NCBI GenBank assembly: GCA_965203555.1
Contig: CBDBCY010000004.1
Location: 960,001-1,024,000 of the forward strand
Source of the DNA: Acidimicrobiia bacterium
Lineage (GTDB): Bacteria; Actinomycetota; Acidimicrobiia; Spongiisociales; ZC4RG35
DNA: 64,000 bases
Direction: 5' to 3'
The translations under genes were made by a program, and so were the position numbers. Position 1 is the stretch's first letter. Every line of letters starts with the position of its first letter. Positions 29,902-56,999 of the stretch are shown one piece after another. A model generated the notes under the pieces. The model had not been told where the DNA came from. It worked only from the letters and a program-made list of their open reading frames with translations, and made no database searches.

Positions 29902-30605
29902 CAGATCCCCAGGTAGGCGCGTCGCACCAGATCACTTTCGAGCACGGCTCGGGTCTCGCCGCTCTCCACCACCGAGCCCGACTCCATCACATAGGCTTTC
30001 TTGGCGATCTCCAGCGCCAGAAAGGCGTTCTGTTCCACCAGCAGCACCGTCAGGCCCTGCTCGTTGAGGTCGAGGATGATTTCCGCCAAGTGGTCGACGA
30101 TGATGGGGGCCAGTCCTGCCGACGGCTCATCCAGCAGCAGCAGGCTGGGATTACCCATCAATGCCCTGGCGATGGCCAGCATCTGTTGCTCCCCGCCGCT
30201 GAGCGTGCCGGCTCGTTGACGCGCCCGCTCGGAAAGCCGCGGGAAGAAATCGAACGCCCTGGCGAGCCGATGCTGGTATTCGTCCTGCTCCTTGACCAGG
30301 TGGGCGCCCATTTCCAGGTTCTCTAGAACCGTCATGGCCGGGAAGAGTTCTTTGCCCTGCGGCACGTGACCCAGCCCCATTCCGACTATCTCGTGGGGTC
30401 TGAGGTTGTCGATTCGGTCCCCGTCGAAGGTGATCTCTCCCCCCATGGGTCGGAGCACCCCCGAGACGGTGAGGAGCAGGGTGGTCTTGCCTGCCCCGTT
30501 GGCGCCGATCACGGTCACCAGTTCGCCTTGGCCGACGCTGATCGAGACGTCGAACAGCACCTGCACCCGCCCGTAGGCCACATTCAAAGAACTGATTTCA
30601 AGCAC
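29901..30605 (-). CDS. livF: Branched-chain amino acid-type ABC ATP-binding protein
   Basis: GANGAGKT, LSGGEQQMLAIARAL, LDEPSAGLAP, VEQN. Confidence 0.93.
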   Translation of the reverse strand: MLEISSLNVAYGRVQVLFDVSISVGQGELVTVIGANGAGKTTLLLTVSGVLRPMGGEITFDGDRIDNLRPHEIVGMGLGHVPQGKELFPAMTVLENLEMGAHLVKEQDEYQHRLARAFDFFPRLSERARQRAGTLSGGEQQMLAIARALMGNPSLLLLDEPSAGLAPIIVDHLAEIILDLNEQGLTVLLVEQNAFLALEIAKKAYVMESGSVVESGETRAVLESDLVRRAYLGI

Positions 30606-31365
30606 CGCGACGCTTCCCCAGATAGGCGGTCACCACATCTTCGTCGCCAACTATCTCTTCGGGAGTGCCCTCTGCGATCTTGGCCCCGAAGTTGAGCACC
30701 GTAATCCTGGTGCAAATGTTGGTTATCAGACGCATGTTGTGCTCGACCAGCAACACCGTGACGCCCTTGTCTCGCAAGGTTCTGATCAGGTCCATCAGAA
30801 ACCCCGCTTCCTCGGGGTTCAACCCGGTGGCAGGCTCATCGAGCAGGAGCATCCGGGGTTTGGCGGCCAGCGCGATGGCGATCTCCAGGTACCGGTGTTC
30901 GCCGGCGGACAGGTCTCGAGCCACCGCCTCGATGCGTCCGTCCAGACCCACCGCCGCCAGTAGTTCCCGGACCCGCTCCTCCAGCACCGCACACTGCTTC
31001 CGGTATCTGCGGGACCGGGTCAGAGCTCCCAAAAGAGTGGTGGGATTGTTGAGATGGCGGCCGTGGAGAACATTGTCCCGAACCGTCAAGTTCTCGAACA
31101 AGGTGGTGATCTGGAATGTGCGGACCAGTCCCATCCGAGCCAGGTCGTGAGGCTGGGCGCCGGTGATGTTCTCTCCCTGATAGGTCACCACTCCCCCGGT
31201 GGGCTTGATAAAGCCCGTAATGAGATTCAGGGCGGTGGTCTTCCCGGAGCCGTTCGGGCCGATCAGACCCCGGATCTCCCCTTCCTCCACGGACAAATCC
31301 AACTCGTCGACCGCCGACAGGCCGCCGAACATTCTGGTGAGCCCGGTGGTCTCGAGGATCGGCAT
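30598..31365 (-). CDS. livG: Branched-chain amino acid-type ABC ATP-binding protein
   Basis: FGGL, GPNGSGKTT, RTFQ, LDEPATGLN, VEHNM, AYLG. Confidence 0.93.
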   Translation of the reverse strand: MPILETTGLTRMFGGLSAVDELDLSVEEGEIRGLIGPNGSGKTTALNLITGFIKPTGGVVTYQGENITGAQPHDLARMGLVRTFQITTLFENLTVRDNVLHGRHLNNPTTLLGALTRSRRYRKQCAVLEERVRELLAAVGLDGRIEAVARDLSAGEHRYLEIAIALAAKPRMLLLDEPATGLNPEEAGFLMDLIRTLRDKGVTVLLVEHNMRLITNICTRITVLNFGAKIAEGTPEEIVGDEDVVTAYLGKRRGA

Positions 31366-31368
31366 TCG

Positions 31369-32391
31369 CTACTCCACCCCCACCCCGTCCACGGCATGAT
31401 CTTCGCCGGCTACCGTGACCTCTTCTCCCGATTCCTCGCGTTTCCTCCGCCGCCGAAATGCTTTCTGGAGAGCGGGAAAGACCCCGATCGGCATGAAAAG
31501 CACCACCAGGAGCAACACCACACCGAAAATCACGAAACGATACTCCTGTAGGGCCCGGAGCCACTCACTCACCAGGACGAAAATCGCCGCACCGAAAACC
31601 GGACCCCACAGGGTCCCCGTCCCTCCCACCAGAACAACGATCAAGAAGATGAACATGTATTGGAGGCCCAACAGATTCGGGTTGACAAACCGGAAATGGT
31701 GAGCGTACAGGGCGCCGGAGAACCCCACCAGCGCGCAGGCGAACGAGAACGCCAGGACGTAATATCTGGTGGCCGCCACACCGATGGACTTGGCGAGGTC
31801 TTCGTTCTCGTGAATGCTGCGCACCGCCCTGCCGAAGCGGGACTCCCGCATCCTGGACAGGATGAAGACCACTCCCAGCAGCAACAACAGGGCGAAGTAG
31901 AAATAGGCCAACTCCGACCGTATTTCCCAGCCGAACAGACTGGGCGGGGGGACCTGGCGCAATCCCGACGGGCCGCCGGTGACCGGCCGCCACCGCAGGG
32001 CCACGGTCCAGGCCAAAACCCCGAAGCCCAGCGTGACGATCGCCAATTCGAGTCCGCGGGTCCTGCGCAGAGCGACATAGCCGATCAAAAGACCCACCAG
32101 GCCGGCGGCCGCCGGCGCAGCCAGGAAACCTATCCATGGGGAGATCCCCAGGTCCAGGGCCAGTTTGGCCGAGACATAGGCGCCGAACCCCCAGAACGCG
32201 GCATGTCCGAAGGAGAACTGCCCCATCTCGCCCATGATGTAATCAAGGCTGAGTCCCGCCACCGCATAGATCACGATCAACACCAACAGTCCCCGGTTGT
32301 AGGCGTTGGTAAAGAGAAACAACGGCACCAGCAGGGTCACCAGCAGCGCCGGGGCGCCCAACCAGAAACCGGAAGGCACTTTCAGCCTCAC
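31369..32391 (-). CDS. livM: Branched-chain amino acid-type ABC permease
   Basis: GQFSFGHAAFWGFGAY, TGGPSG, SRFGRA..IHENE, GGTGTLWGP. Confidence 0.92.
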   Translation of the reverse strand: MRLKVPSGFWLGAPALLVTLLVPLFLFTNAYNRGLLVLIVIYAVAGLSLDYIMGEMGQFSFGHAAFWGFGAYVSAKLALDLGISPWIGFLAAPAAAGLVGLLIGYVALRRTRGLELAIVTLGFGVLAWTVALRWRPVTGGPSGLRQVPPPSLFGWEIRSELAYFYFALLLLLGVVFILSRMRESRFGRAVRSIHENEDLAKSIGVAATRYYVLAFSFACALVGFSGALYAHHFRFVNPNLLGLQYMFIFLIVVLVGGTGTLWGPVFGAAIFVLVSEWLRALQEYRFVIFGVVLLLVVLFMPIGVFPALQKAFRRRRKREESGEEVTVAGEDHAVDGVGVE

Positions 32392-32392
32392 G

Positions 32393-33256
32393 TCACTTCC
32401 TCCCGAACAGGCCCTGGGGGCGAAGCAGCAGGACGACGATCATCACCACGTACAGGTATCCCTGGCGGTAGTAGGTGGAGATGAACTGGCCGAACAACGC
32501 CTCGGTAACACCCATGAACAGCCCCACCGCCACCGCTCCCGCCACATTCCCCATCCCGGCGACTATCACCACCGCAAAACCGGTGATGAGCAGAGGTTGT
32601 CCCAGGTTGGGGGATGCAGACGAAACCAGGACTATCAACACTCCGGCCAGGGCCGCCAATCCCGATGCGACTATCAGGGTGGTGTCATAGATGGCGGTGG
32701 TATTGATCCCTATCAGGCGGGCGCCCAGCAGGTTCTGGCCGGTGGCTCGGGTCTTCTTGCCCAGCTTGGTGTGGGTGAGCATGAGATACAACCCCAGGAC
32801 CGCCGCAAAGCACACCCCCACCAGCAACAGGCTGGCGGTGGTGATGTACACCCCTCCCACCTGGAGAATTTCATTGAATGGCTCCTCCACCCCCTTGGGC
32901 CCGGATCCCCACACCACAAGACTGCCGTTCAGCAACATGAAACTGAGAGCCACGGTCGAGAGGATCACCACCAATTCGGAGTGTCCCAGGAACGGGCGGA
33001 CCGTGACTCGGTTTACGAGAAAGCCGGCCAGGGCCATGACCAACACCACCACGGCAGCGCCCGCGAAGTAACCCAGCCCCACCACATTGGTGACCGTGTA
33101 CAACAACATGGCCCCCAGCATGGTCAGCTCGCCATGCGCCATGTTGATCACCCTCATGACTCCGAACACCAGGCTCAACCCTGCCGCGAATATCACGTAG
33201 ATCGAGCCGTTCAGAAGCCCGTTCCACAGTTGCTGGCCGATGACATCCCAACTCAT
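32393..33256 (-). CDS. livH: Branched-chain amino acid-type ABC permease
   Basis: NGLLNGSIY, GLSLVFGVMRVINMAHGE, TKLGKKTRA, AGMGNVAGA. Start MSWDVI. Confidence 0.92.
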   Translation of the reverse strand: MSWDVIGQQLWNGLLNGSIYVIFAAGLSLVFGVMRVINMAHGELTMLGAMLLYTVTNVVGLGYFAGAAVVVLVMALAGFLVNRVTVRPFLGHSELVVILSTVALSFMLLNGSLVVWGSGPKGVEEPFNEILQVGGVYITTASLLLVGVCFAAVLGLYLMLTHTKLGKKTRATGQNLLGARLIGINTTAIYDTTLIVASGLAALAGVLIVLVSSASPNLGQPLLITGFAVVIVAGMGNVAGAVAVGLFMGVTEALFGQFISTYYRQGYLYVVMIVVLLLRPQGLFGRK

Positions 33257-33311
33257 CCGCCGGACCTCCCTGGGATGCCGACCAATCCGGATTGAAACCA
33301 CCGAATCATGG

Positions 33312-34112
33312 CTAGCCGTAGATCGGGACCCGGTTGTCGAAGCGTATTGCCGAAATCTCCCCGCTGATCCTGTCCACGAAGGACCTGAGGATCGGACCGT
33401 ATGTGTTCTCCAGCGTTTCGATGTCAGCCCGCGTGGCAAGGGTGGCCACCCCCACGGCCCCTATCACGTCGGTCCCGTGAAACACCGGGGCGGACACCGA
33501 TCTCAACCCCTCCGTCAGTTCCTGGTCGTTCAATGCGATCCCCTTGATCCGCGCCTCCTCCAGTTGCCCCCGGTAGTCATCGGCCCCGGTAACCGTGGTG
33601 ATGGTCCTCGGCTCGAACTCCATCTGGTTCAGCACCGCCTCCACGTCGTCGGGCGGCATGGCCGAGAGAATGGCCTTGCCCAATGAACTCAGATGGGCGG
33701 GCAGCCGACTGCCCACTTGAAGATTGATTGTGATGATGTCGTCGCGGTGACGTCTGGCCATGTAGATGACCTCGGCCCCCTCCAGCACGCCGTAATTGAC
33801 AGCCGTGGCCTCCGGCAATGCCAGGCTGATCTCATCCAGGTAGGGGCGGATGTGCTCCACGAACTCCCTTGACTCCACCGCGGCCACCCCCAGCCTCAGC
33901 ACCTTCTTGGAAGGCCGGTAGAGTCGCTCCGTTCTGCTTATGTATCCCAACTCTTCCAAAGCACCGGTTAGTCGGTAGACGCTCGCCCGGCTGATCTGGG
34001 TGCGCCGTGCGATGTCGGCCACCGAAAGCGCCGGGGACTTCTCGTCAAAGGCGGACAGAATCTGCAGACCCTTGGAAAGAGACCCTCGCTGATGGCTGGG
34101 AACAGCCGTCAT
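33312..34112 (-). CDS. IclR family transcriptional regulator (PcaR-like)
   Basis: SLSKGLQILSAF, HTH SVADIARRTQISRASVYR, VGSRLPAHLSSLGKAIL, GLRSVSAPV. Confidence 0.93.
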   Translation of the reverse strand: MTAVPSHQRGSLSKGLQILSAFDEKSPALSVADIARRTQISRASVYRLTGALEELGYISRTERLYRPSKKVLRLGVAAVESREFVEHIRPYLDEISLALPEATAVNYGVLEGAEVIYMARRHRDDIITINLQVGSRLPAHLSSLGKAILSAMPPDDVEAVLNQMEFEPRTITTVTGADDYRGQLEEARIKGIALNDQELTEGLRSVSAPVFHGTDVIGAVGVATLATRADIETLENTYGPILRSFVDRISGEISAIRFDNRVPIYG

Positions 34113-34127
34113 CCGGAGTCGGCGAGT

Positions 34128-34457
34128 CTATTCGACAACGAACTCGTCCTCCTCGACGATCACGAACACCGAATCTTGGGTCTTGGCGCCCATGAAGTTC
34201 TTCTCGTCAGCCAGCAGCGCGGCATACTCGGGAGAATCGGCCGTGGCCAGAAAGTCCTCCACGCTGTCGTACCACACCTCCGCCACTCCGTCGCAAGGGG
34301 CCTGCCGCCCCGGTACTTCCAAGGGTCGGCATTGAACGTAGCGGCGCACCCTGGGCATGGCCAGCACCAGGGGCGCATGGACATTCTTCCAGTGTTCATG
34401 GAATTGTTCACTGGTCAGGTCGGACCTCCTGGTGAGAATGGTTACTGTCTTGATCAT
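34128..34457 (-). CDS. EthD family protein
   Basis: MIK..LTRRSDLTSEQFHEHWKNVHAPL, YVQ, DGVAEVWYDS, DEKNF. Confidence 0.88.
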   Translation of the reverse strand: MIKTVTILTRRSDLTSEQFHEHWKNVHAPLVLAMPRVRRYVQCRPLEVPGRQAPCDGVAEVWYDSVEDFLATADSPEYAALLADEKNFMGAKTQDSVFVIVEEDEFVVE

Positions 34458-34512
34458 CTTCCACTCCCCCGAGGGAGGCTCGGGTCACCGGGAAGACGGC
34501 GCCGGAAAAGGA

Positions 34513-34917
34513 TCATCCGTCTTCGTCCACCACTGCCACCGCCTCGATGTCTATCAGGGCGTGGTGAATCAGTTCGGCGACCACCACCGTCACCCGAGCC
34601 GGCTGTCGATCGGGGAAATACCGGGCATACACGGGCTCGTACCGGTGGTAGTGGTCGTGATCGATCAGATACACCCTGGTCAAGACCACATCGCTCATCT
34701 TGGCGCCGGCTCTTTCCAGGGCCCCCTTGAGATTCCCCAGGGCCAGTTCGGCCTGCTCCTCCAGGGTCTCCGCCAGAGCCCCGGTCCTCTTGTCCCAGCC
34801 CAGTTGCCCCGTAACCCATAGGGTGTTACCCGCCCGCACAACATCGTTCCACCGGCTCTTCGACCCGATGGCTTGGAAGAGTTCCTCCTCAACCGGGACG
34901 AACACTCTCTCCACCAT
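34513..34917 (-). CDS. RidA/YjgF family protein
   Basis: VRAGNTLWVTGQ, QAELALGNL, PARVTVVVAEL, IDIEAVA. Confidence 0.9.
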   Translation of the reverse strand: MVERVFVPVEEELFQAIGSKSRWNDVVRAGNTLWVTGQLGWDKRTGALAETLEEQAELALGNLKGALERAGAKMSDVVLTRVYLIDHDHYHRYEPVYARYFPDRQPARVTVVVAELIHHALIDIEAVAVVDEDG

Positions 34918-34945
34918 CTGCCCAGCCTCCTTCCTCGGTCAATAG

Positions 34946-34990
34946 GATGTATCGGTCCGGCCCTGAGTCAAGGGCGCAGACCGATACATC
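34946..34990. terminator. Strong stem-loop downstream of the SBP gene (attenuator or mRNA-stabilising hairpin)
   Basis: GATGTATCGGTC...GACCGATACATC is a perfect 12-bp inverted repeat with an inner GCCCT/AGGGC stem. Confidence 0.55.
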
Positions 34991-35011
34991 AAAGTATGGG
35001 ATTAGTTTCGT

Positions 35012-36256
35012 CTACCCGGCGAGCGGAACGGCGTCAACGGGTTGCAGGACGCCGCCAGTCGACTGAATTATGATCCAGTCGTCAACCAGTCGGAGTCCCT
35101 TGTCGTTGAAGCGCAACGGCTTACCGCGAGGAGTGACGAACCCATGCTCGTCATTCATCAGGGGAGCAACCGCCGAATACTCGGTCGTTCCGGCCGCCTC
35201 GATTGCCGCCATCAACTGCAGGGCAGCCGTGTAGCCCAACTCCGACCACCAGTCCGGAGCGGATCCGAACTCGGCCTCATAAGCCTCCGAGAAGGCGGCC
35301 GCCTCGGGAATGGACTCGTCCAGAATCCACCCGGTGGAACTGTAAATGCCTTCGGAGAGATCACCCAGGGCTTCCACTTCCGGCGGGGTGTAAACGACCT
35401 CGTTGACCATGATGTCACCCTCGTAGCCGATTTCGCGAGCGGCCTGGACGGCGTTGACCACCACGTCCTTACCCCACAGACCGAGATACAGAAGATCCGG
35501 ATCGTTGCCGACGCCCTTGGTGACTTCCACCCGGGCTTCAGCTGTTCCATAGGGGAAGTAAATCATCCCGGTGTACTCGAAGTCAGCCGGGGCTTCCTCT
35601 GCGAAAATACGGGTGAATTCATCGTTGGTGAGCAACACCCAATCCGAATCCACTCCTACACCCTGGACCCGCTTGTATCCCTGCTTGATCATCCACCGGG
35701 CCAGCACTGAGAGTGCGTTGCTGTCCGACTGGGTTTGCTTGACCGGAGCGCGGATGTGCACTGCGCCGTCATAGCCCTCGGTGGTAATCAACTCCGAGCC
35801 GCAGGCAGTCACCACCAGCGGGACACTTTCCTCCTTGAACACATCCTTCATCGCCACACAGGTCGTGGCATCGTTGCCGCCGGCAACGCCCGCCACTCCG
35901 TCGGCGATGGCCTTGCGAGCCGAAGCCACCGATTCATCAGCCGAATAGCCTTCGTCATAGTGGACAACCTCGACCTGGCGTCCCAGTAGGCCGCCCGCCT
36001 CGTTCTGCTGCATCACGGCCAACTCGAACCCGTTGCGCATGATGTCGCCCAAACCGACCGCCGTTCCCGAGTTGAACCAGACGGTTCCCAGCTTGATGGG
36101 CTCTGCCGGTTCGGGCGCCGCGGTGGTGGTTGGAGCCGCGGTGGTGGGAGCCGCCGTGGTCTCGGCCGCTTCTTCTCCGTCACCACAAGCAGTGGCGACC
36201 AGAGCCAGGACGGACAGCACCACTGCCACTCGTACCCAAGATCTACGTTTACTCAT
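35012..36256 (-). CDS. Branched-chain amino acid-type ABC substrate-binding lipoprotein (LivK-like)
   Basis: Lipobox ATAC, TTAAP linker, NEAGGLLGRQVEVVHYD, AIEAAGT; head of a liv-type operon. Confidence 0.9.
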   Translation of the reverse strand: MSKRRSWVRVAVVLSVLALVATACGDGEEAAETTAAPTTAAPTTTAAPEPAEPIKLGTVWFNSGTAVGLGDIMRNGFELAVMQQNEAGGLLGRQVEVVHYDEGYSADESVASARKAIADGVAGVAGGNDATTCVAMKDVFKEESVPLVVTACGSELITTEGYDGAVHIRAPVKQTQSDSNALSVLARWMIKQGYKRVQGVGVDSDWVLLTNDEFTRIFAEEAPADFEYTGMIYFPYGTAEARVEVTKGVGNDPDLLYLGLWGKDVVVNAVQAAREIGYEGDIMVNEVVYTPPEVEALGDLSEGIYSSTGWILDESIPEAAAFSEAYEAEFGSAPDWWSELGYTAALQLMAAIEAAGTTEYSAVAPLMNDEHGFVTPRGKPLRFNDKGLRLVDDWIIIQSTGGVLQPVDAVPLAG

Positions 36257-36409
36257 TTGCCTGCCTTCTCCTTCCGAACCCATACCTCCCCAAAGAGGAT
36301 GGGCATAGAGTCACGCTGCTTCACTTTGTAGGTCATCTCGACCCGCGTACCTCCACCTGACATCGTCTGGGGCCACCCCGGTCAAAATGCCCGTTTACCG
36401 GAATCTTTA

Positions 36410-37775: not shown

Positions 37776-38945
37776 TTATGACGCAATCATGGCCGCGGAG
37801 ACTCGCCGATCCGTCCAACCCTTCAGGCGGCGGACCGCTTCGGCGATGTCATCGGTGGACTCGGAGTAGGAAAACCGCACCCAGCGGTCGCCCTGCTCCG
37901 GATCGAAGTCGATTCCCGGGGTGGCCGCCACGCCTATCTCCTCCAGCCAGCGCGCGCACAGGGCTGGAGAGCCCATGCCCAGATGGGAGACATCGGCGTA
38001 CACGTAAAAGGCGCCGTCCGGAGGAGCGATCCGGGTGATTCCGGCTTCGGCCAAACCTGCCACCAGTATCTCACGGCTATCGGCGTAAGCGGCGACGTTG
38101 GCGTCCAACTCTTCTGCGCAGTCGAATGCCTCCAGGGCGCCCAACTGGGAGACGGTTGGAGGAGCGATGAAGAGATTCTGGGCCAGCCGTTCGAGCGGGC
38201 GGAACATCTCGGGGGGCGCCACCAGCCAGCCCAGCCGCCAGCCGGTCATCGAAAAGTACTTGGAGAAACTCTGGACCACCACTGCCGAGTCGCTGAATCC
38301 GAGTGCCGTCGCCGCCCGCTCCCCGTAGTCGATTCCGTGATAGATCTCATCGGAGATCAGCACGGCGCCGGTGTTCGAGCAGAAGTCAGCCACCTCTTTC
38401 ATCTCGTCGGCGGTCAGAGTCACTCCGGTGGGATTGGAAGGGCTTGCCACAACCAGCCCGTCCAAGGGACCCGCCATCTCCAGACGATCCACCGATGGGA
38501 CGAAGCGAGTTTCGGCATCCACCCTGACTTCCACCAGTTCCAGGCCCAGCGCGCTGAGAACATTGCGATAGGCCGAATACCCGGGGACGGTCATTGCCAC
38601 CCGGTCACCGGGATCGAACAGCGCCAGGCAAGCCAGGACAAAGCCGGCCGAAGCGCCGATTGTCATCACCACCCGTTCGTGCGACACGTTCAGTCCGTAC
38701 CGCTCCCCGTAGAAGCGCCCAATTCTCGCCCGGAGGGCCACCAGGCCGGTGGCGGCGGTGTAACCGAGCCGATCATCCGTCAAGCCTCTCCGGGCCGCCT
38801 CCCGGACGCGTGAAGGAGCGGGGGTCATCGGCTGGCCCACCTCCAAGTGAAGAACGTCGCCGCCCTCCACCTCTCGACGGGCGGCGGCCTTCATCACCTC
38901 CATCACATAGAAGGGAGGAATCTGGGAGCGGAGAGACTCCTTCAC
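37776..38945 (-). CDS. Class I/II PLP-dependent aminotransferase
   Basis: HLEVGQP, SPSNPTG, SDEIYHG, SFSKYFSMTGWRLGW, PDGAFY, TPGIDF. Confidence 0.93.
   Translation of the reverse strand: MKESLRSQIPPFYVMEVMKAAARREVEGGDVLHLEVGQPMTPAPSRVREAARRGLTDDRLGYTAATGLVALRARIGRFYGERYGLNVSHERVVMTIGASAGFVLACLALFDPGDRVAMTVPGYSAYRNVLSALGLELVEVRVDAETRFVPSVDRLEMAGPLDGLVVASPSNPTGVTLTADEMKEVADFCSNTGAVLISDEIYHGIDYGERAATALGFSDSAVVVQSFSKYFSMTGWRLGWLVAPPEMFRPLERLAQNLFIAPPTVSQLGALEAFDCAEELDANVAAYADSREILVAGLAEAGITRIAPPDGAFYVYADVSHLGMGSPALCARWLEEIGVAATPGIDFDPEQGDRWVRFSYSESTDDIAEAVRRLKGWTDRRVSAAMIAS
37803..37845. repeat. 43-bp direct repeat, copy 2
   Basis: Identical to 37028-37070; lies inside the aminotransferase 3' end. 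Confidence 0.95.
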
Positions 38946-38957
38946 CGATCGCCAGGT

Positions 38958-39620
38958 TTATCCGGTAGCTTTTTGAGCCTGGGCCGGAGTGCAGTAGGAA
39001 ACGCCGGTCCCACCGATGCCGCAGTATCCCCACGGGTTCTTGGACAGGTACTGCTGGTGGTAGTCCTCGGCGTAGTAGAAAGGCTTGTCCACACCGATTT
39101 CGGTGGTAACCCGGTCATAACCGCTGCGGTAAAGCTCTTTCTGGTAGGCCTCCAGGCTTGCCCAGACCGCCGGCAGTTGCTCTTCCCTGCTGACATAGAC
39201 CGCGGAGCGGTACTGGGTGCCGTAGTCATTGCCCTGCCTCATCCCCTGGGTGGGATCATGTCCCTCCCAAAAGACCTGCATGAGTTGGTCGAGACTGACT
39301 ACGTGAGGCCTGAACACCACCTGCACCACCTCGGTGTGTCCGGTCATGCCCGAACAGACCTCTTCATAAGTGGGATTGGGGGTGAACCCCCCTTGGTAGC
39401 CGGCCGCGGTGGAATACACCCCGTCGGTCTGCCAGAACATCCGTTCCGCTCCCCAAAAGCACCCCATGCCGAACCAGATGATCTCCGTTTCTTCGGGAAA
39501 CGGTGGAACGATCCGCGCTCCGGAAACATCGTGGAATTCAGGCACTGAAAGGGGGGTCCGCCTGCCGGCCAGAGCCTGATTCTCGCCGGGAAGACTATTG
39601 GGCTTTTTGCGCCATGACAT
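38958..39620 (-). CDS. msrA: Peptide-methionine (S)-S-oxide reductase
   Basis: [40 protein letters not shown]. Confidence 0.96.
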
Positions 39621-39680
39621 AGGCCGGAGGCTACCAGTTGCCGGTTCCGGGGGCAACAGAATATGTCAAAGGACGTGTGC

Positions 39681-41759
39681 TTATCCCAACGAACCGAACC
39701 ACTGGTCGTGAAGCTGCCGGTAGACGCCGCTTTCGATGAGGTCCAGCAGAGCCAGGTTGACCTGTTCCCGGAAGGCGGCGTCGTCCTGGCTCAGAACCAA
39801 CCCGTACTGGACCTTCTCGAAGTCGGGCCCCACTGTCGTCACCTCGCCGCCTCCTTCCCGGGCAGCGTGGAAGTGAAGCACCGGCGCGTCGAACACAACT
39901 GCGTCGATTTCGCCTGCTTCCAGAAGGGAGTAGGCCTCCCCGATCTCGCCTACCAGCACCGGTCCCACGCCGACGGAGGTCATGTATACCTCCCCCGCCG
40001 ATTGCGAGACCGTGGCAATCCGGTGACCGGGCAGGTCGGAGGGGCCGGAAATCTCGCCCCGCAGTTCATTCACCGCCAGGGAAGAGGCGATAGAAGCAGT
40101 GAAGCTGGCGAACACCAGCGTCCCCAGGGCTATCCATACCAGGGCGAACACCCTCCCTTTGGCGCCCCTCGCCACCTTGTCGCCATACCCGACCGTACTC
40201 ATGGTCACCACCGACCAGTAGAACGAGTCCCAGATCCCCTGGCGGTAGGGCACCGCGAAGTCGGCGTTGTCATGGCGTTCCAGCCACCAGATCACATGGG
40301 CCGAGACCAGCACCACCACCCCGAACAGAACCAACAGCCAGGGAAGATCCGAAGAACCGATGGCACGGAAGAACTGAAGGATCCGATCACCGATGTGCCT
40401 GGACGACTCCGTGGGCGCCAAGATGGTCAGTCCGGCATCGAGCACCGGCATCGAGAAGTCGACCAACCGCTCTCTTGATTCGGTGATGGCCACTCCCCCC
40501 AGAGCCACCCGGGCAACGCCGCGGTTGATGTCGTCGATCTGCTTTGCAACGGTGTCCACCGCGTAGATGTCCGCTTCCATCCCCAGGCGGGCGGCGAGCA
40601 GACGCGCCAATTCCACCTCGAAGCCGCTGTAGGAGCGGTTGTCATAAGTGGCGAAGGGAGGAAGAAGACGAACTGCCACCGGCAGTCGTCCCCCGGCTGC
40701 CGAGACCTCGCCGCTGGTCTCCGCCAGTCCGACCGCTTCCGGATCCGCAGCCTCGATCCAACGCTGCACGATGACCTCATTGGCTTCCACCCACTCTTTG
40801 GCATGGCGACGGATATCCTCGGGATCTCCCTCGTCGGCCACCATCAGCGCGTTTTGAGCGGAGATGTCCGCCAGTGGTATAACCACCAGCTCCAACAGCT
40901 TGCGGATCGATGGGTTGGCTTCCAGGAATTCGGTGTTGGCGACCACCCGGATGTCGTTGGGGGGCCACCCGACCCCGCAGGGATCGTTGGCGCATCCCGG
41001 AATACCGGCAATGGCGGTCCGGTCCAGGTATGCAGCCTGTTCCGCCGGCAAGGAGGGGAAGGGCGTCTCCAGCCAGACCACGTCCCGGCCGGGCACCAAC
41101 TCACCCACTGTCCAGTTGGGTGTCCAGGTGTAGTAGAGAACCGGCTGCCCGGCTCGATATTGGTCGAAGGTCGCCCTTATCAAAGGGGAGTACGCGCCCT
41201 GCACCTGCTCGACAGTCTCCCGCAATCCATAGGCGTCAAGGTGGTGGTCTATGATCGCCGCACATCCCCAGGAGGGTTCACAGCCGATCAAGTCGGCCAA
41301 CCCGTCCCCGTCATGATCGAAGAGGGCGGCAACCTCCCGTGATGACAAGTCACCGAGGTTGGTGATCCCATGGGCTTGCGCAGTGGATCTGTCCACAAAG
41401 TATCCCTGCAGCGCTCCGTCGTCGACTTGAGTGCCCACCCGCTCCGCGAATTCCTCCTGTACGAAGGAGTCCTGCGTCGGGAACCATCCGTTCGCCCACA
41501 AATCCACTTCCCCCGCCGCCACGGCGGTGTAGAACTCGTCATTGTCCATGGTGAGAGGACCCTCGACCTCGTAGCCGAGTTGCTGGATCAAAAGCCGGTA
41601 AACCTCGGCCTGGAACCAACCGGTGTCCCAGGTTGCGCGAGCCATCCGCACCGGCGGGTTATCGGCAGGCTCGTCGTCGGATTGGGCCACCGCTATCCCC
41701 GCACCTATGGAAATGAGCAACAGCACTGTCAGGGTTACAGCGATGGAGATTCTGCGCAT
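39681..41759 (-). CDS. Fusion protein: ProX/OpuAC betaine-binding domain plus GluR0-like ligand-gated K+ channel (S1-M1-P-M2-S2)
   Basis: Signal peptide; ProX motifs NGWFP, GCEPSWGC, YTWTPNW; S1 ITESRERLVDFS; M1 ..WWLERHDNADF; filter TMSTVGYGD; SFTASIASSL; S2 FDAPVL..YGLVL. Confidence 0.88.
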   Translation of the reverse strand: MRRISIAVTLTVLLLISIGAGIAVAQSDDEPADNPPVRMARATWDTGWFQAEVYRLLIQQLGYEVEGPLTMDNDEFYTAVAAGEVDLWANGWFPTQDSFVQEEFAERVGTQVDDGALQGYFVDRSTAQAHGITNLGDLSSREVAALFDHDGDGLADLIGCEPSWGCAAIIDHHLDAYGLRETVEQVQGAYSPLIRATFDQYRAGQPVLYYTWTPNWTVGELVPGRDVVWLETPFPSLPAEQAAYLDRTAIAGIPGCANDPCGVGWPPNDIRVVANTEFLEANPSIRKLLELVVIPLADISAQNALMVADEGDPEDIRRHAKEWVEANEVIVQRWIEAADPEAVGLAETSGEVSAAGGRLPVAVRLLPPFATYDNRSYSGFEVELARLLAARLGMEADIYAVDTVAKQIDDINRGVARVALGGVAITESRERLVDFSMPVLDAGLTILAPTESSRHIGDRILQFFRAIGSSDLPWLLVLFGVVVLVSAHVIWWLERHDNADFAVPYRQGIWDSFYWSVVTMSTVGYGDKVARGAKGRVFALVWIALGTLVFASFTASIASSLAVNELRGEISGPSDLPGHRIATVSQSAGEVYMTSVGVGPVLVGEIGEAYSLLEAGEIDAVVFDAPVLHFHAAREGGGEVTTVGPDFEKVQYGLVLSQDDAAFREQVNLALLDLIESGVYRQLHDQWFGSLG

Positions 41760-42018
41760 GGAAGTGTCCGGTGGGTTTCAACCACAGGGTAGTGGGGCTG
41801 TGGCGCAGTGTAGCAAGCTGCAAGGACGTGTAGGAATACTGAAGAATAAGGTGTCTGGCGCCAGTTTTGCGGGGAAAACCTGTAGTTTTCGCGGCGCGCC
41901 CCCAGGACTTTAGGCTAAGGTTTTACCCAACAGACGCCTCCCTACAGGTAAGGGGGACGTAACCAAGGCGGCAGAAAGGAGACGCACATGATTGATCTGC
42001 GAATAGAAAGGAGTTCGT

Positions 42019-43785
42019 ATGGCTGACAAAGAAGATCTCGATCTCACTCAGATTGCCGAGGCCTTAGAGGATTGGGAAGATCAAGAGGAACGCGCCCGCG
42101 ATGCGGCGATCCGTAATCGACCCCAGTTCGAAGGCCTCCAGATCGATCCCGAGATCGATTTCTACCCCGAAGTGGCCGATCGGGAGCCTGGTGACAAGAA
42201 CATCGTCAGGTGGGGATTCGACATCCATCCGCAGGTGACGTTCGTCGCCGCCGGATTCCTGTTGCTCTTCATCGCTTGGTCTTTGCTGTTTCCGGAGTCG
42301 GCCGGCGGTGTCTTCGGCGCCATTCTCAACTTCATCAACGAGAAGGTGGGTTGGCTGTACATCATCTCCTTCAACGTCTTCATCGGCGCGGCGCTCTACT
42401 TTGCGTTAGGCCGGTACGGCAAGATTCGACTAGGCGGTCCAGGCGCCCTTCCGGAGTTTTCCACCGGGGCCTGGTACGCAATGCTGATCTCTGCCGGTCT
42501 TGGCATCGGGTTGATGTTCTGGGGTGTGGCTGAGCCAATCTTCCACCTGACCGCACCGCCTCCCTTGTTCGAGGTGGAACCCCTGTCAACGGGCGCGGCC
42601 AGAGGAGCACTGGCGACCTCCTACCTCCATTGGGGGATTCATGGATGGGCGCTTTACGGACTGGTAGCCCTGGCCCTGGGATTCTTCGCCTACAACCGAG
42701 GATTGCCACTGACCTTCCGATCGGTCTTCTATCCGATTCTCGGTCCGAGGATCTACGGTACATGGGGCAACGCGATCGACATCCTCACTGTGGTGGCCAC
42801 CCTCTTCGGTCTCGCCACCTCACTGGGATTCGGCGCCGGACAGGCGGCTGCGGGGTTGAACAAGCTCTTCGGTCTCCCGTCGGGCACCGGCTTTCAGATC
42901 GTCCTGATCGCCTTCATCACCGGGCTGGCAACCATCTCGGTTGTGGCCGGTTTGGACGCCGGGGTCAAGAGGCTGAGCCAGCTCAACGTGTGGCTGGCCG
43001 CGGCCTTCCTGGTCTTCGTGCTGTTGGTGGGCCCCACTCTGCTGGTGCTGTCACTGTACGTTGAGAGCATCGGAGTGTATCTCCAGATACTGCCAGAGTT
43101 CTCGTTCTGGAACGCTGCTTTGATCGACACGCAATGGCAACAATGGTGGACAATCTTCTACTGGGGATGGTGGATCTCCTGGTCTCCCTTCGTCGGTATG
43201 TTCATCGCCCGGATCTCCAAGGGACGTTCGGTGCGGGAAATGATCATTGGTGTGATCGTCCTCCCCTGCCTCCTTTGCTTCCTGTGGTTCGCGGTGTTCG
43301 GCGGAGCGGCCATGGATCTGCAGATGCGCGGCGAACTGGACGTTGCCACGGCGGTCAACGAAAACGTGGCGACTGCCCTGTTCGTGATGTTGGAGGCCTT
43401 CCCATGGACCTTCTTCGTCTCCATAGTCGGCATTCTGCTGTTGGTTTCGTTCTTCGTCACCTCTTCGGACTCCGGATCCTTGGTGGTGGACCACCTCACC
43501 TCTGGAGGAAAACTCGATTCGCCCAAGCCCCAGCGGGTGTTCTGGGCCTTGATGGAAGGCTTGGTGGCATGCGTGTTGCTGTTGGGAGGTGGCCTGTCGG
43601 CGCTCCAAACGGCCGCAGTGGCCACCGGACTGCCATTCCTCTTCGTGCTCTTGATCATGCTCTGGAGCCTCAAGAAGGCCTTCGATGAGGAACTCGACCT
43701 CTTGGAAGCCCACTACGACGAGGCCATCTTCCAATCCCAGCACGCCGGTCTGATCGAGAAACTGGGTAGAGGGGGTGCAAAGTGA
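42019..43785 (+). CDS. BCCT family transporter (betaine/choline/carnitine)
   Basis: GKIRLG, SAGLGIGLMFWGVAEP, LHWGIHGW, WTIFYWGWWISWSPFVGMFIARISKGR, TSSDSGS. Confidence 0.95.
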   Translation: MADKEDLDLTQIAEALEDWEDQEERARDAAIRNRPQFEGLQIDPEIDFYPEVADREPGDKNIVRWGFDIHPQVTFVAAGFLLLFIAWSLLFPESAGGVFGAILNFINEKVGWLYIISFNVFIGAALYFALGRYGKIRLGGPGALPEFSTGAWYAMLISAGLGIGLMFWGVAEPIFHLTAPPPLFEVEPLSTGAARGALATSYLHWGIHGWALYGLVALALGFFAYNRGLPLTFRSVFYPILGPRIYGTWGNAIDILTVVATLFGLATSLGFGAGQAAAGLNKLFGLPSGTGFQIVLIAFITGLATISVVAGLDAGVKRLSQLNVWLAAAFLVFVLLVGPTLLVLSLYVESIGVYLQILPEFSFWNAALIDTQWQQWWTIFYWGWWISWSPFVGMFIARISKGRSVREMIIGVIVLPCLLCFLWFAVFGGAAMDLQMRGELDVATAVNENVATALFVMLEAFPWTFFVSIVGILLLVSFFVTSSDSGSLVVDHLTSGGKLDSPKPQRVFWALMEGLVACVLLLGGGLSALQTAAVATGLPFLFVLLIMLWSLKKAFDEELDLLEAHYDEAIFQSQHAGLIEKLGRGGAK

Positions 43786-44714
43786 TGAAGCGATCGAGTG
43801 TTTTCGTCGCCGCTCTTGCGGCTTTCGTGTTGATGCTTTCGGCTTGCGCCACCGAGGAAGTTGCCGGGCCGGTGAAGATCGCCCGGGCCAACTGGGACTC
43901 CGGTTACATGCAGGCCGCCATCTACGCGGCTCTGATCGAGGAGTTGGGGCACGAGGTCACTGACCCCGCCGCCGCCACCCTCAGCCCCTATTCGTTCTAT
44001 CCGGCTTTGGCCGCTCGCCAGTACGACCTGTGGGCCAATGGCTGGTTCCCCCTCCACAACATCTACCTGGAAGGAGAGAACGTCACCGGCCAAGCGGTTG
44101 AACTCCCCATCGAGCCGATCGGCACGCAGGTGGGTGGTGGAGCCACAGACGGCTTGATGATCGACAAGGCCACAGCTGACAGACTGGGAATCAGAGACAT
44201 GGATGGGGTCGCCGCCAACGCCGGCGCCTTCGACCACGACGGCGACGGCAAGGCCGACCTCTACGGATGCAACGTCGGATGGGGATGCGAAACCGCCATC
44301 AACGAACAGATCGCCAATGAAAGTTGGGGCTCAGGAGTCGAACAGATTTCCGGTACCTACAACGACTTGGCGCAAGGCGTCGTGGAGAGAGTGGCGGCCG
44401 GTGAATCGGCCCTGTTCTACGCTTGGACGCCCAACTGGACGAACACCGTCCTAGTGGCGAACAGCAATGTGGTTTGGCTGCAATCCAACGTGAATGACAT
44501 CCGAGCGGTGGCCAACACCGACTTCCTGGATGAATACCCGGACATCAAAGCTCTCCTCGATGCGGTGGTAATCCCGCTGACCGACATCGCGGCTCAAAAC
44601 GCCAAGATGGCCGCCGGGGATTACAGCGAGGCTGACATCAGAGCTGACGCCGAAGCCTGGATCGCGGCCAACCGCGACACGGTCGACAGCTGGCTCGCAG
44701 CCGCCCGAGGCTAA
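43782..44714 (+). CDS. Glycine betaine/proline-binding lipoprotein (ProX/OpuAC-like)
   Basis: Lipobox LSAC, NGWFP, GCNVGWGC, YAWTPNW; GTGA overlap with the BCCT stop. Confidence 0.9.
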   Translation: MMKRSSVFVAALAAFVLMLSACATEEVAGPVKIARANWDSGYMQAAIYAALIEELGHEVTDPAAATLSPYSFYPALAARQYDLWANGWFPLHNIYLEGENVTGQAVELPIEPIGTQVGGGATDGLMIDKATADRLGIRDMDGVAANAGAFDHDGDGKADLYGCNVGWGCETAINEQIANESWGSGVEQISGTYNDLAQGVVERVAAGESALFYAWTPNWTNTVLVANSNVVWLQSNVNDIRAVANTDFLDEYPDIKALLDAVVIPLTDIAAQNAKMAAGDYSEADIRADAEAWIAANRDTVDSWLAAARG

Positions 44715-45773: not shown

Positions 45774-48188
45774 ATGGGAACCAGTAAACGAATTATCACG
45801 GTCGCAATCGCGACCATCTTCATGTTCACCACCGCCCTACCCGCTATAGCCCGACCACCCGACCACCCCGGAGAACAGGGGAGCAGTAGCAGCGGATCGA
45901 GCGAAAGCGGATCAGGATCAGGAAGCGGATCAGGATCAGGAAGCGGATCAGGATCAGGAAGCGGATCAGGATCAGGAAGCGGAAGCCGGGGAGGTGGCAG
46001 CCCCCACGATCCCAGCAACAACCCGCCCGGCGGATCGAGCGGAGGCGGATCGAGCGGAGGCGGAAGCCCCAACCCCGATCACGATCCCAACAATCCCGAC
46101 AGCCACGACAACCGCGGAAGCGGATCAGGATCAGGAAGCGGATCAGGATCAGGAAGCGGATCAGGATCAGGAAGCGGAAGCCGGGGAGGTGGCAGCCCCC
46201 ACGATCCCAGCAACAACCCGCCCGGCGGATCGAGCGGAGGCGGATCGAGCGGAGGCGGAAGCCCCAACCCCGATCACGATCCCAACAATCCCGACAGCCA
46301 CGACAACCGCGGAAGCGGATCAGGATCAGGAAGCGGATATTGCGACCCCGGCAGATGCGGAAGCGGATCATCCCCATCAGCGACCAACCCCACGCTAAAG
46401 ACAACAAAGACCATAGGCGGCACAACCATAACCACCAGCAGCGACGGATCTATGTCGGCTACGGGAACCACCAGATCAGGAGCCAAGGTAACCGTTACCA
46501 GAAACCCAGACGGAACAACGACCATGTCCGTCGCGGGAAGCACCACTATCGCCGGAGTCAAGACAACCGTGACCGGCAAAGACGGAACCGTCACAGTCAC
46601 CGGCACAGGACCCCTAGGCACCAAGGTAACCACAACCATTGACGCCACCACCGGCGAGATCGAAACCAAAGTCGAAGCCACCCCCGAATCAGTAGCCGCC
46701 GCCATCGAGAAAGCCGGGAAGGACAAGGCCAGGAAAGAGATCGACAAACGAACCCCCAAAGGCGCAAGCGGCGGCGGAGGAGGCCGCGGCGGAGGCGGGG
46801 GCCGCGGCGGAGGCGGAGGCGGAGGCGTGACCTGCTTCAACAGTTGCCTCAACCACAACACAGGAACACCTAACAATCCAGCCAATACCAACGCTTTCAA
46901 CAGACGCACAACCACCACCCAACCACCCACTGGCAGCCCCCACGATCCCAGCAACAACCCGCCCGGCGGATCGAGCGGAGGCGGATCGAGCGGAGGCGGA
47001 AGCCCCAACCCCGATCACGACCCCAACAATCCCGACAGCCACGACAACCGCGGAAGCGGATCAGGATCAGGAAGCGGATCAGGATCAAGCGGAAGCCGCG
47101 GCGACGGAGGCGGAGGCGAAGAAACCCGCACCGGCCAAGCCACCACCGAAAGCGGAAGCAAAGAGCCGGAGAACCCGGGCAACCAGGAGCCGGAGCCGAG
47201 AACGTATTGGTGCGGGAGCGGACAGCTGGCCAGCAACTACCGCCAATGCAGCGAATCCGAATTCAACGAGAAGGTCCGCCAGGAAGAGCAGGCAGAGCGG
47301 GACCGCCGGGCAGAGCGGGACCGCCAGCGGGAGCTAGCACGCGAGCAGGAACGCCTAAACCAGGAGGCCCGGGAACGGGAACGCCAGGAGCAGGAAGCCA
47401 CCAGCCGCACGACGGCCACCACCGGAGGCGGAGGCGGAAGCTATACAGCCACCGGCCAACCAGAAACGACCACCTACTCCGATGGAACGAAGATAACCAC
47501 GACTACACATGCCGACGGATCAATAACCGGGACAGCAGTAAGACCCGACGGCAAAACCGTTACCGTAGTCGTGGATAGAACCGGCAAGGTCTTAAGCAAA
47601 AAGACAACCGACACCGGAGGCGAAACACCACGCCAGGAGCCGGAGCAGCGCCAAGAGCAAGAGCAGGCCCCGCCGCCGAAACCCGAACCCGAGCCGGTTT
47701 ATCGGACGGAAACCCGCTACCGCACGGTAACCCGCACCCGAACGGAAACCACCTACCAGACGGAAACCCGCTACCGGACCGAGACCCGCTACCGGACAGA
47801 GACCCGCTACCGGATAGAGTGGGAGCGCGGCACTGCACCCGTCCGCAAGATAGTCAAAAAGACCCGCATGGTCCGCAAGTCCCGGCTGGAGGACCGCACT
47901 TACACACAGCCAGCATATTGGCAGTATGACCCCAAGACCGGCCGGGTGAACAGGGTTCCGGAGAAAGCGGTGACCTACCAAGTTCCCGTCGACTACTACG
48001 AGGAGGAAGAGTACGACGTGGTCGTGGAAACCGGGGAGACCTACCCGACCTTCTACCGGAAGGTGATTCCCTACACGGTACAGGTGTCCTACAGCACGCA
48101 GGTACCGTACACCGTCGAGGTAGAGGGAACCCGCCAGGTGTCCTACGAAGAGCAGGAGGCGTACACCGTCCAGGTACGCGACCAGTAA
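45774..48188 (+). CDS. Large secreted low-complexity repeat protein (Gly/Ser, His/Asp/Asn/Pro repeats, Thr-rich region, coiled coil, C-terminal YRTETR/YTVQV beta-hairpin)
   Basis: 804-aa open frame with AAAGGA RBS and signal peptide MGTSKRIITVAIATIFMFTTALPAIA; in-frame repeats; downstream hairpin. Confidence 0.8.
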   Translation: MGTSKRIITVAIATIFMFTTALPAIARPPDHPGEQGSSSSGSSESGSGSGSGSGSGSGSGSGSGSGSGSGSRGGGSPHDPSNNPPGGSSGGGSSGGGSPNPDHDPNNPDSHDNRGSGSGSGSGSGSGSGSGSGSGSRGGGSPHDPSNNPPGGSSGGGSSGGGSPNPDHDPNNPDSHDNRGSGSGSGSGYCDPGRCGSGSSPSATNPTLKTTKTIGGTTITTSSDGSMSATGTTRSGAKVTVTRNPDGTTTMSVAGSTTIAGVKTTVTGKDGTVTVTGTGPLGTKVTTTIDATTGEIETKVEATPESVAAAIEKAGKDKARKEIDKRTPKGASGGGGGRGGGGGRGGGGGGGVTCFNSCLNHNTGTPNNPANTNAFNRRTTTTQPPTGSPHDPSNNPPGGSSGGGSSGGGSPNPDHDPNNPDSHDNRGSGSGSGSGSGSSGSRGDGGGGEETRTGQATTESGSKEPENPGNQEPEPRTYWCGSGQLASNYRQCSESEFNEKVRQEEQAERDRRAERDRQRELAREQERLNQEARERERQEQEATSRTTATTGGGGGSYTATGQPETTTYSDGTKITTTTHADGSITGTAVRPDGKTVTVVVDRTGKVLSKKTTDTGGETPRQEPEQRQEQEQAPPPKPEPEPVYRTETRYRTVTRTRTETTYQTETRYRTETRYRTETRYRIEWERGTAPVRKIVKKTRMVRKSRLEDRTYTQPAYWQYDPKTGRVNRVPEKAVTYQVPVDYYEEEEYDVVVETGETYPTFYRKVIPYTVQVSYSTQVPYTVEVEGTRQVSYEEQEAYTVQVRDQ
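45896..47090 (+). repeat. Intragenic repeats: GGATCAGGATCAGGAAGC arrays and three near-identical ~150-bp blocks (starts 45996, 46191, 46932)
   Basis: Seen directly. Each block encodes GSPHDPSNNPPGGSSGGGSSGGGSPNPDHDPNNPDSHDNRGSGSG. Confidence 0.9.
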
Positions 48189-56841: not shown

Positions 56842-56897
56842 TGCCTGGCTCCTTTTCTTTCTGAGAGGAGCCCGAGAAACTGGAGACTTGTTCAACG

Positions 56898-56992
56898 AAA
56901 GCTTCCTTCGCCGGCATTATCCGGATCAGGTGCTAACGGTCGGAGGAGCCCATCCTCCCTCTCAGCCCGGTCTCGCCGAGCTCCCGTGTTTG
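56898..56992 (-). promoter_or_regulatory. TPP riboswitch (THI element)
   Basis: Minus strand ACGGGAGCTC...GGGCTGAGAG...GACCGTTAGCACCTGATCCGGATAATGCCGGCGAAGGAAG matches the TPP consensus; directly upstream of thiB. Confidence 0.95.
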
Positions 56993-56999
56993 CTTGACT

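Follow-up and report, generated by a model that had tools for sequence, protein, structure and literature searches.

A stretch of 64,000 nucleotides from an Acidimicrobiia bacterium (assembly GCA_965203555.1, contig CBDBCY010000004.1, positions 960,001 to 1,024,000 of the forward strand), referred to here as the window, contains a gene at 39681..41759 on the minus strand that almost certainly encodes a genuine K+ channel of the GluR0 type carrying a ProX domain on its outer side. On balance, the sequence favors a ligand-gated K+ channel made of four subunits, in which betaine-type osmolytes would modulate gating by way of an amino-terminal layer that was acquired independently and differs from the LIVBP type. 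Judged separately, binding of a betaine-like ligand by the ProX domain is likely, and regulation of gating by this binding, which is argued by analogy, is about evenly balanced or slightly favored.

The gene is a single uninterrupted open reading frame (ORF) of 692 amino acids, as was described in a first-pass annotation made from the sequence alone. It has an ATG start and no internal stops. The encoded protein consists of a signal peptide, a ProX/OpuAC domain, a disordered linker of ∼20 amino acids and a channel part in the order S1-M1-P(TVGYGD)-M2-S2. The Sec signal peptide, which had also been proposed, is predicted from the hydrophobic helix 2-19 and an AVA/Q site, the exact position of cleavage being a prediction as well, and the N-terminus is without a lipobox Cys. 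In Pfam, OpuAC was matched at residues 36-325 (E 7e-49, 167 bits versus a cut-off of 21.2) and SBP_bac_3 at residues 366-689 (E 2.6e-25). The latter match is interrupted by the pore, and Ion_trans_2 (481-561, E 3.5e-15) and Lig_chan (474-578, E 8.5e-12) lie between its halves. The NCBIfam equivalog for ProX (NF008334) covers residues 22-339 with 342 bits versus a cut-off of 215, and no match to ANF_receptor or Peripla_BP was obtained for the channel protein in the Pfam search. The motifs read from the sequence before could all be located: NGWFP (90-94), GCEPSWGC (159-166) and YTWTPNW (210-216) in the ProX domain, ITESRERLVDFS with the conserved Arg in S1 (425-436), the intact K+ filter TVGYGD (522-527, nt 40179-40196) and SFTASIASSL in M2 (552-561), as could the short linker that joins the ProX domain to S1 (340-358).

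An AlphaFold2 model was built from an alignment of 82 sequences and had a mean predicted local distance difference test score (pLDDT) of 90.4 and a predicted template modeling score (pTM) of 0.70. Stretches of low confidence were limited to residues ∼23-28, beside the signal peptide, and to the linker at 346-356 (pLDDT <50). Helices were predicted for the hydrophobic N-terminus (2-19), M1 (472-494), the pore helix (505-521) and M2 (533-568). The model has no helix after S2 and no hydrophobic helix beyond residue 568, and therefore no M4. Sequence and model together predict that the ProX domain and both clamshell halves are extracellular, with M1, the re-entrant P-loop and M2 forming an inverted K+ pore. 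In a Foldseek comparison with the PDB, the first half matched E. coli ProX in complex with glycine betaine (1r9l; TM score on the target 0.91, root-mean-square deviation 2.6 Å, E 1.8e-28), and the second half matched chains of AMPA receptors comprising the ligand-binding domain (LBD) and the transmembrane domain (TMD) (E ∼1e-19 to 1e-20, TM ∼0.5). The structure of the tandem substrate-binding domains (SBDs) of GlnPQ (6h30) was also among the matches. Among solved LBDs, the nearest in sequence is the GluR0 core of Nostoc punctiforme (2pyy, E 3.4e-36, residues 359-689), and this match, together with the K+ filter and the absence of M4, upholds the earlier identification as a GluR0-type K+ channel. 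When the ProX domain (30-345) and the LBD-TMD part (357-692) were predicted as a complex, with alignment A2 given to both chains, the median score was 0.52, compared to 0.50 in the control in which chain 1 was replaced.

Alignment with 1r9l (E 4e-64) places W92, W164 and W212 at the positions of Trp65, Trp140 and Trp188, which are reported to form the betaine cage of E. coli ProX. The Trp box of that protein holds the trimethylammonium group. Cys136/Cys142 of 1r9l align with C160/C166, the position of its His69 is occupied by Q96, and the ProX domain also has a conserved Cys256/Cys261 pair. In the clamshell, R429, T426 and D624 align with 2pyy and GluN2B positions. In structures of ionotropic glutamate receptors (iGluRs), the S1 Arg, the S1 Thr and the S2 Asp/Glu hold the α-carboxyl and α-amino groups of the amino-acid agonist.

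Conservation of these residues was counted in a close set of 120 homologues (≥69% identity) and in a distant set of 129 fused homologues (33-59% identity, median 48%). W92, W164, W212, R429 and the TVGYGD filter are invariant in the close set (120/120), in which D624 is kept in 117. Among the 129 distant homologues, W92, R429 and TVGYGD are each found in 127, W164 in 126 and D624 in 123. Position 212 is aromatic in all of them (113 W, 15 F and 1 Y). Position 96 is His in 104 and Gln in 16 of the close homologues, and His in 108/129 of the distant ones.

Pairwise ratios of nonsynonymous to synonymous substitution rates (dN/dS; Nei-Gojobori, medians over 16 coding sequences) were 0.096 for the ProX domain, 0.095 for the pore module (TMD), 0.139 for the LBD, 0.33 for the linker and 0.40 for the signal peptide region. 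Purifying selection on the ProX domain matches that on the pore, and the ranking is clear though the values are rough. The linker columns are also variable in alignments A1 and A2.

Compared to GluR0 of Synechocystis and of Nostoc punctiforme (2pyy), the window protein has the same S1-M1-P-M2-S2 order, the same TVGYGD filter, the S1 Arg and S2 Asp and an identical S2 stretch DAVVFDAPVL, and it has neither M4 nor a C-terminal domain (CTD). The characteristics of GluR0, namely a split clamshell with a two-helix P-loop pore, a K+ filter, the lack of M4 and CTD and the residues of the amino-acid site, are thus all present, except for the lack of an amino-terminal domain (ATD): a ProX domain of ∼310 amino acids and the linker are added before S1, where GluR0 has only a signal peptide. 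The S2 ligand loops differ as well (ATVSQSAGEVY versus ATTAGSTAATY in GluR0), and the side-chain specificity may therefore differ from that of GluR0. GluR0 was reported by Chen et al. in 1999 to be a glutamate-gated K+ channel (cited in PMC12551409).

With E. coli ProX of the ProU system (1r9l), the window domain shares an alignment over the full length, the fold, the three Trp and the first Cys pair, and its NCBIfam equivalog score is over the cut-off, so that sequence thresholds, Trp cage and class II fold of the ProX/OpuAC proteins are all present. E. coli ProX is a free periplasmic protein, whereas the window domain is joined covalently to a channel. No ProVW is adjacent, and the domain is not the receptor of a neighboring ProVW/OpuA ABC importer. 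It further differs by the Gln in place of His69 and by the extra Cys256/Cys261 pair.

Eukaryotic iGluRs (AMPA, kainate and NMDA receptors and plant GLRs) have in common with the window protein an outer clamshell, an LBD clamshell and a pore, an M3-like gating helix (SYTANLAAF, SFTASIASSL in the window protein) and a matching LBD-TMD fold. Their outer layer is of the LIVBP/ANF_receptor type, whereas that of the window protein is of the OpuAC/ProX type, and they have M4, a CTD and a Q/R/N-site pore, all of which are missing from the window protein, which has a K+ filter instead. The ATDs of NMDA receptors modulate channel opening allosterically, which provides a plausible analogy. Since the outer domain is OpuAC (PF04069) and not LIVBP/ANF_receptor, an independent acquisition is indicated, and this difference in family supports the earlier proposal of a prokaryotic receptor channel with two binding domains that gained a different kind of ATD independently. 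In the available part of its text, a 2025 review describes prokaryotic iGluR-like proteins as being without N-terminal domain, M4 and CTD, and derives the eukaryotic ATD from a LIVBP-type protein (PMC12551409).

Two further kinds of protein are close in design. Judging from the accessible text, the nearest published item is an engineered EhuB-GluR0 chimera, in which an ectoine-binding protein is functionally coupled to the GluR0 pore (Bernhard and Laube, bioRxiv 10.1101/2021.01.27.428399). As in the window protein, a binding protein for a compatible solute sits on a GluR0 pore, so osmolyte-binding proteins can gate it. That chimera is artificial and its binding protein replaces the LBD, whereas the window fusion is natural, keeps the LBD and adds the domain in front. 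SBDs fused to ABC transporters (OpuA of Lactococcus lactis, GlnPQ 6h30) likewise have an OpuAC- or SBP_bac_3-type domain on a flexible linker to a membrane protein, but in the window protein the membrane partner is a K+ pore. A K+ pore cannot translocate betaine, and the tethered ProX domain could therefore only sense and not deliver within this polypeptide.

The architecture is not peculiar to the window genome. A word-index search gave 591 homologues, of which the best 120 have 69-100% identity and a length of ∼690 amino acids and all carry PF04069, PF00497, PF00060 and PF07885. Many homologues are located on megabase-size contigs, including single-contig genomes of 2.6-5 Mb. Among 41 related genomes, the full-length gene was found in 19: the window's own genome, every one of the 16 further members of its genus, G018 from a different genus of the same family (64% identity) and G033 from a different family (69%). 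No full-length match was obtained in the remaining 22, among them the unpublished G027. An even sample of the class had the gene in 13 of 401 genomes and 8 of 177 genera (E ≤ 1e-150). For the phylum of a cyanobacterial metagenome-assembled genome (MAG) the number was 5 of 401 genomes, counting the MAG itself and one match that ends at a contig edge. A scan of GTDB located full-length loci in an Acidimicrobiia MAG, in Candidatus Spongiisocius variivorans, in an unclassified MAG and in this cyanobacterial MAG (locus L024, 47% identity), where the neighboring genes (Ycf48, NdhK and NdhJ) are truly cyanobacterial.

An exhaustive search of 1.84 billion cluster representatives (50%-identity clusters) yielded ten divergent representatives with 33-49% identity that align end to end (P0121, P0122, P0124-P0129, P0131 and P0133) and a form of 1008 amino acids, P0123, in which two OpuAC domains precede the channel. 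The Pfam domains could be verified in all eight fused representatives checked, seven of the ten and P0123. Two other longer forms were seen, P0143 with a partial OpuAC match and P0179 without an OpuAC match in Pfam. Relatives of the plain GluR0-type protein P0157 (E ≤ 1e-10) that are longer than 695 amino acids numbered 132, and the best 120 of these all have OpuAC, SBP_bac_3, Lig_chan and Ion_trans_2. The source names of the long P0157 relatives include Desulfobacterales, Desulfosarcinaceae, Xenococcaceae, Symploca and Actinomycetia MAGs. The ProX-GluR0 architecture is a sizeable family present in at least three phyla, and it recurs in the related genomes, in the class sample, in cyanobacterial MAGs and in MAGs named Desulfobacterales.

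A quick maximum-likelihood tree based on the channel part placed the 26 fused rows without exception inside one group of 33 rows, opposite 28 GluR0-only rows. Support for the group in this quick search was weak (SH-aLRT 90), and the group also holds two other forms and five GluR0-only rows, three of them fragment-like (P0145, P0163 and P0196) and two not (P0201 and P0203). The channel sequences are thus consistent with a single origin of the fusion followed by losses, which is plausible. P0179 (500 amino acids) is a GluR0-type channel with an N-terminal extension of ∼160 amino acids that has no Pfam match; in the tree it is the sister of the fused P0131, and its extension may be truncated or a different outer domain. 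P0133 (689 amino acids) has REGWGK as filter and is also without the first cage Trp. The contigs of P0123 and P0133 are both reported as 29437 long, and the two may be neighboring paralogues with a non-K+ pore.

The following sequence of events is proposed. The signal peptide would be cleaved and, judging from the behavior of GluR0 and iGluRs, four subunits would form the pore. The S1/S2 clamshell would bind an α-amino acid via R429, T426 and D624, and its closure would pull M2 open, as in GluR0 and iGluRs. The cage of W92, W164 and W212 would hold glycine betaine or a related osmolyte of the quaternary-ammonium or sulfonium kind, and the ProX domain may tune or co-gate opening through the short linker and by contacting the upper clamshell lobe. 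Modulation of gating by ProX closure is proposed because of the analogy to the NMDA-receptor ATD and because a betaine domain attached to a K+ pore cannot take part in transport through that pore. During osmoadaptation, K+ and glutamate accumulate first and are later replaced by betaine. The channel could link the external availability of compatible solutes to K+ movement or membrane potential in this process. In Acidimicrobiia it might act together with a neighboring BCCT-family transporter, which would import betaine, and a ProX-like lipoprotein, and its role could be to trade accumulated K+ against betaine or to balance the charge of cation-coupled betaine uptake.

Several points weigh against this mechanism. 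Each of its functional steps is drawn from homology, and the direction of the K+ flux (out, in, or a potential clamp) is not deducible from the sequence. The linker is predicted to be disordered, the pTM is only 0.70 and a defined ProX-LBD interface is absent from the model. The window protein carries Gln at the position of E. coli ProX His69, which is the minority form (16/120). Some members have lost parts of the sites or the filter: the second cage Trp is missing in P0124, P0126 and P0129, Ser or His replaces D624 in P0126, P0128, P0129 and P0133, and P0123 and P0133 read REGWGK in place of the K+ filter. The family is therefore not functionally uniform. The dN/dS values are rough because dS is ∼1 and close to saturation. 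Finally, the BCCT neighborhood is absent around the cyanobacterial gene (L024), and the link to the transporter may therefore be lineage-specific.

Table 1. Features of the channel gene and of its neighbors, in positions of the window.
Feature	Position	Strand	Basis or remark
Whole channel gene, 692 aa	39681..41759	-	ORF list, Pfam/NCBIfam domains, AlphaFold2 model
Predicted Sec signal peptide, residues 1-25	41685..41759	-	Hydrophobic helix 2-19 and AVA/Q
ProX/OpuAC-type substrate-binding domain (amino-terminal layer), residues 36-339	40743..41654	-	Pfam, NCBIfam, 1r9l alignment, TM 0.91
W92, ProX domain aromatic cage	41484-41486	-	
W164, ProX domain aromatic cage	41268-41270	-	
W212, ProX domain aromatic cage	41124-41126	-	
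Linker ProX domain-S1, residues 340-358, variable and disordered	40686..40742	-	pLDDT, alignment columns, dN/dS
S1 half of clamshell, residues 359-455, with T426 and R429	40395..40685	-	Pfam, 2pyy alignment
R429, S1	40473-40475	-	
Pore module, residues 456-568: pre-M1 helix, M1, pore helix, filter, M2	40056..40394	-	Pfam, AlphaFold2 model, GluN2B M3 alignment
K+ selectivity filter TVGYGD, residues 522-527	40179..40196	-	Motif position, homologue conservation
S2 half of clamshell, residues 569-692, with D624	39684..40055	-	2pyy domain 2 (E 5e-23), AlphaFold2 model, conservation
D624, S2	39888-39890	-	
Divergent intergenic region channel-BCCT, 259 bp	41760..42018	.	ORF list
BCCT-family betaine/choline/carnitine transporter, 588 aa	42019..43785	+	Pfam BCCT E 4e-185; TIGR00842 over cut-off
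ProX-like lipoprotein, 310 aa, GTG start	43782..44714	+	LSAC lipobox, predicted
msrA	38958-39656	-	Directly downstream of channel gene, within 24 nt
Class I/II aminotransferase	37776-38945	-	Downstream of msrA, within 12 nt

The BCCT gene is transcribed divergently from the channel gene, and its stop is overlapped by 4 nt by the start of the ProX-like lipoprotein gene (Table 1). This lipoprotein has 39% identity to the ProX domain of the channel and keeps the three Trp. The cluster of channel, BCCT and ProX-like genes is complete in G002, G009, G011, G033 (the locus also listed as L016 and L021) and L023. It is partly visible in L022, where the contig ends within the BCCT gene, and in G018 the three genes are rearranged and still adjacent. 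Neither ProX nor BCCT was found beside plain GluR0 genes at any of 38 loci (L025-L062, flanks up to 6 kb per side, less at contig ends); such an adjacency would have been a sign of docking between the separate proteins. The pair of BCCT and ProX-like lipoprotein is conserved over three families. To our knowledge, BCCT carriers are not known to use binding proteins, and the pair could be a BCCT system assisted by a substrate-binding protein or a free partner for the channel. The channel gene, msrA and the aminotransferase gene possibly form one operon; the latter two are kept as neighbors within the genus only. A scan of the whole window gave no Rfam family in the intergenic region between channel and BCCT, and a scan of 39400-42200 gave no promoter-like (sigma-70-like) site and one terminator-like site, inside the gene, which is below chance expectation.

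No ABC genes flank the channel gene. ATPases of the ProV type, over the family cut-off, are located ∼39 kb and ∼68 kb from it. Since the dedicated ABC systems are encoded at this distance, the fused domain does not serve an ABC importer at the locus as its binding protein. The second of these ATPases is followed after ∼2.6 kb by three ProX paralogues in tandem (G000:C4:1069863-1076617, outside the window, ∼68 kb downstream), which have 36-37% identity to the ProX domain of the channel. The window genome has at least five ProX-type domains.

This setting bears on a different explanation, in which the ProX domain would be a tethered capture domain that hands betaine to the BCCT or to ProVW, with the GluR0 part as an ordinary channel that serves as anchor, without allostery. 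The BCCT gene does adjoin the channel gene in Acidimicrobiia, but it already has its own overlapping gene for a ProX-like lipoprotein, and the cyanobacterial member has no BCCT nearby. Names given by NCBI and JGI are those of ABC betaine-binding proteins, and the disordered linker is like that of transporter-tethered SBDs, which are known from fusions of SBDs to ABC permeases such as OpuA (PMC2861598, in the portion of the text that is available). However, ProV-type ABC loci have their own ProX paralogues elsewhere, and over three phyla the partner is always an intact ligand-gated channel, which would be needless for a mere anchor. Altogether, a capture function is unlikely.

An explanation of the ProX domain as a structural or assembly layer only, which would have ceased to report ligand occupancy, with gating set by the S1/S2 clamshell alone, has little probability. 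Against it stand the cage Trp, kept in 120/120 close and 126-127/129 distant homologues, the low dN/dS of the ProX domain (0.096) and an NCBIfam ProX equivalog score far over the cut-off. The loss of a cage Trp in some distant members and the Gln at the His69 equivalent of the window protein would fit such a role, as would the assembly (tetramerization) roles of eukaryotic ATDs in the available text of PMC12551409.

It is also rather improbable that the protein is a chemosensory or electrical-signaling device, in which external betaine and amino acids, released for instance by a host or by neighbors, would trigger K+ flux and so alter the membrane potential, as in K+ signaling of biofilms. A MAG with the name Candidatus Spongiisocius is the source of one full-length relative, glutamate/K+ electrical signaling in biofilms is mentioned in the accessible part of PMC12551409, and the sequence evidence fits signaling and osmoadaptation alike. 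However, no signaling partner is encoded at the locus, where the conserved neighbors are a transporter and a binding protein, and the difference concerns the physiological purpose and not the molecular mechanism.

That the gene arose by chimeric assembly, or is a two-gene fusion in decay, has virtually no likelihood, since the equal architecture of 690 amino acids is found on many independent contigs, the relatives carry one gene and not two, the ORF in the window has no internal stops, and the match in G011, which falls in two pieces, is interrupted by a run of N in the assembly and neither by a stop nor by a frameshift, so that a split gene in G011 was rejected.

Returning to the osmolyte-modulated channel, no description of a natural protein with OpuAC/ProX and GluR0 was found in a full-text literature search that had most subscription journals outside its reach, nor did the literature searched contain a published characterization, which the first-pass annotation had considered as a possibility. 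Betaine, OpuAC and ProX are not mentioned in the available portion of the main text of a census of prokaryotic iGluRs (Ger et al., 2010; PMC2950845). NCBI names these proteins ProX binding protein of an ABC transporter, which hides the ion channel altogether, and the JGI names include 'ABC-type proline/glycine betaine transport system substrate-binding protein'. The proteins are present in public databases under misleading names, and their architecture is apparently so far unrecognized.

For the evolution of iGluRs, the family represents a second, independent route to a two-layer receptor, compared to the standard account of prokaryotic receptors without ATD. As a bacterial protein of 692 amino acids with a confident model and no auxiliary subunits, it is attractive for studies of the communication between outer clamshell, LBD and gate. 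The three main currencies of osmoadaptation come together in one molecule, namely K+, betaine and an amino-acid ligand that is probably glutamate-like, and if the coupling exists, K+ homeostasis would be regulated by a new principle. Tentatively, and with less confidence than the modulation of gating as such, these proteins might be natural betaine/amino-acid coincidence detectors in which occupancy of ProX allosterically opens or closes an iGluR-type K+ pore. If so, the switch from K+/glutamate to compatible solutes would be hard-wired in one polypeptide, and iGluR-type channels would have gained an allosteric amino-terminal layer on at least two occasions, with periplasmic binding proteins of two unrelated classes as the sources. 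For synthetic biology, a natural osmolyte-sensing channel would complement the engineered EhuB-GluR0 chimera. The protein would come as a surprise to specialists in bacterial osmoregulation or in the evolution of iGluRs, and it is accessible to standard binding and electrophysiology assays.

Other features of the window were also noted. A branched-chain-amino-acid-type ABC system is encoded at 29901-36283 (-), with a Peripla_BP_6 (LIVBP-type) lipoprotein, two permeases, two ATPases and an IclR-family regulator. The LIVBP-type fold, i.e. the fold of the eukaryotic ATD, is thus encoded, unfused, ∼3.4 kb from the channel gene. At 45774-48188 (+), an ORF of 804 amino acids without a Pfam match has a signal-like N-terminus, long Gly/Ser- and Asn/Pro-rich repeats and C-terminal TRYRTE-type repeats, and a strong AT skew extends across it. 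A thiamine pyrophosphate (TPP) riboswitch at 56886-56997 (-), with 68.5 bits versus a gathering score of 54.3, is the sole Rfam match in the window.

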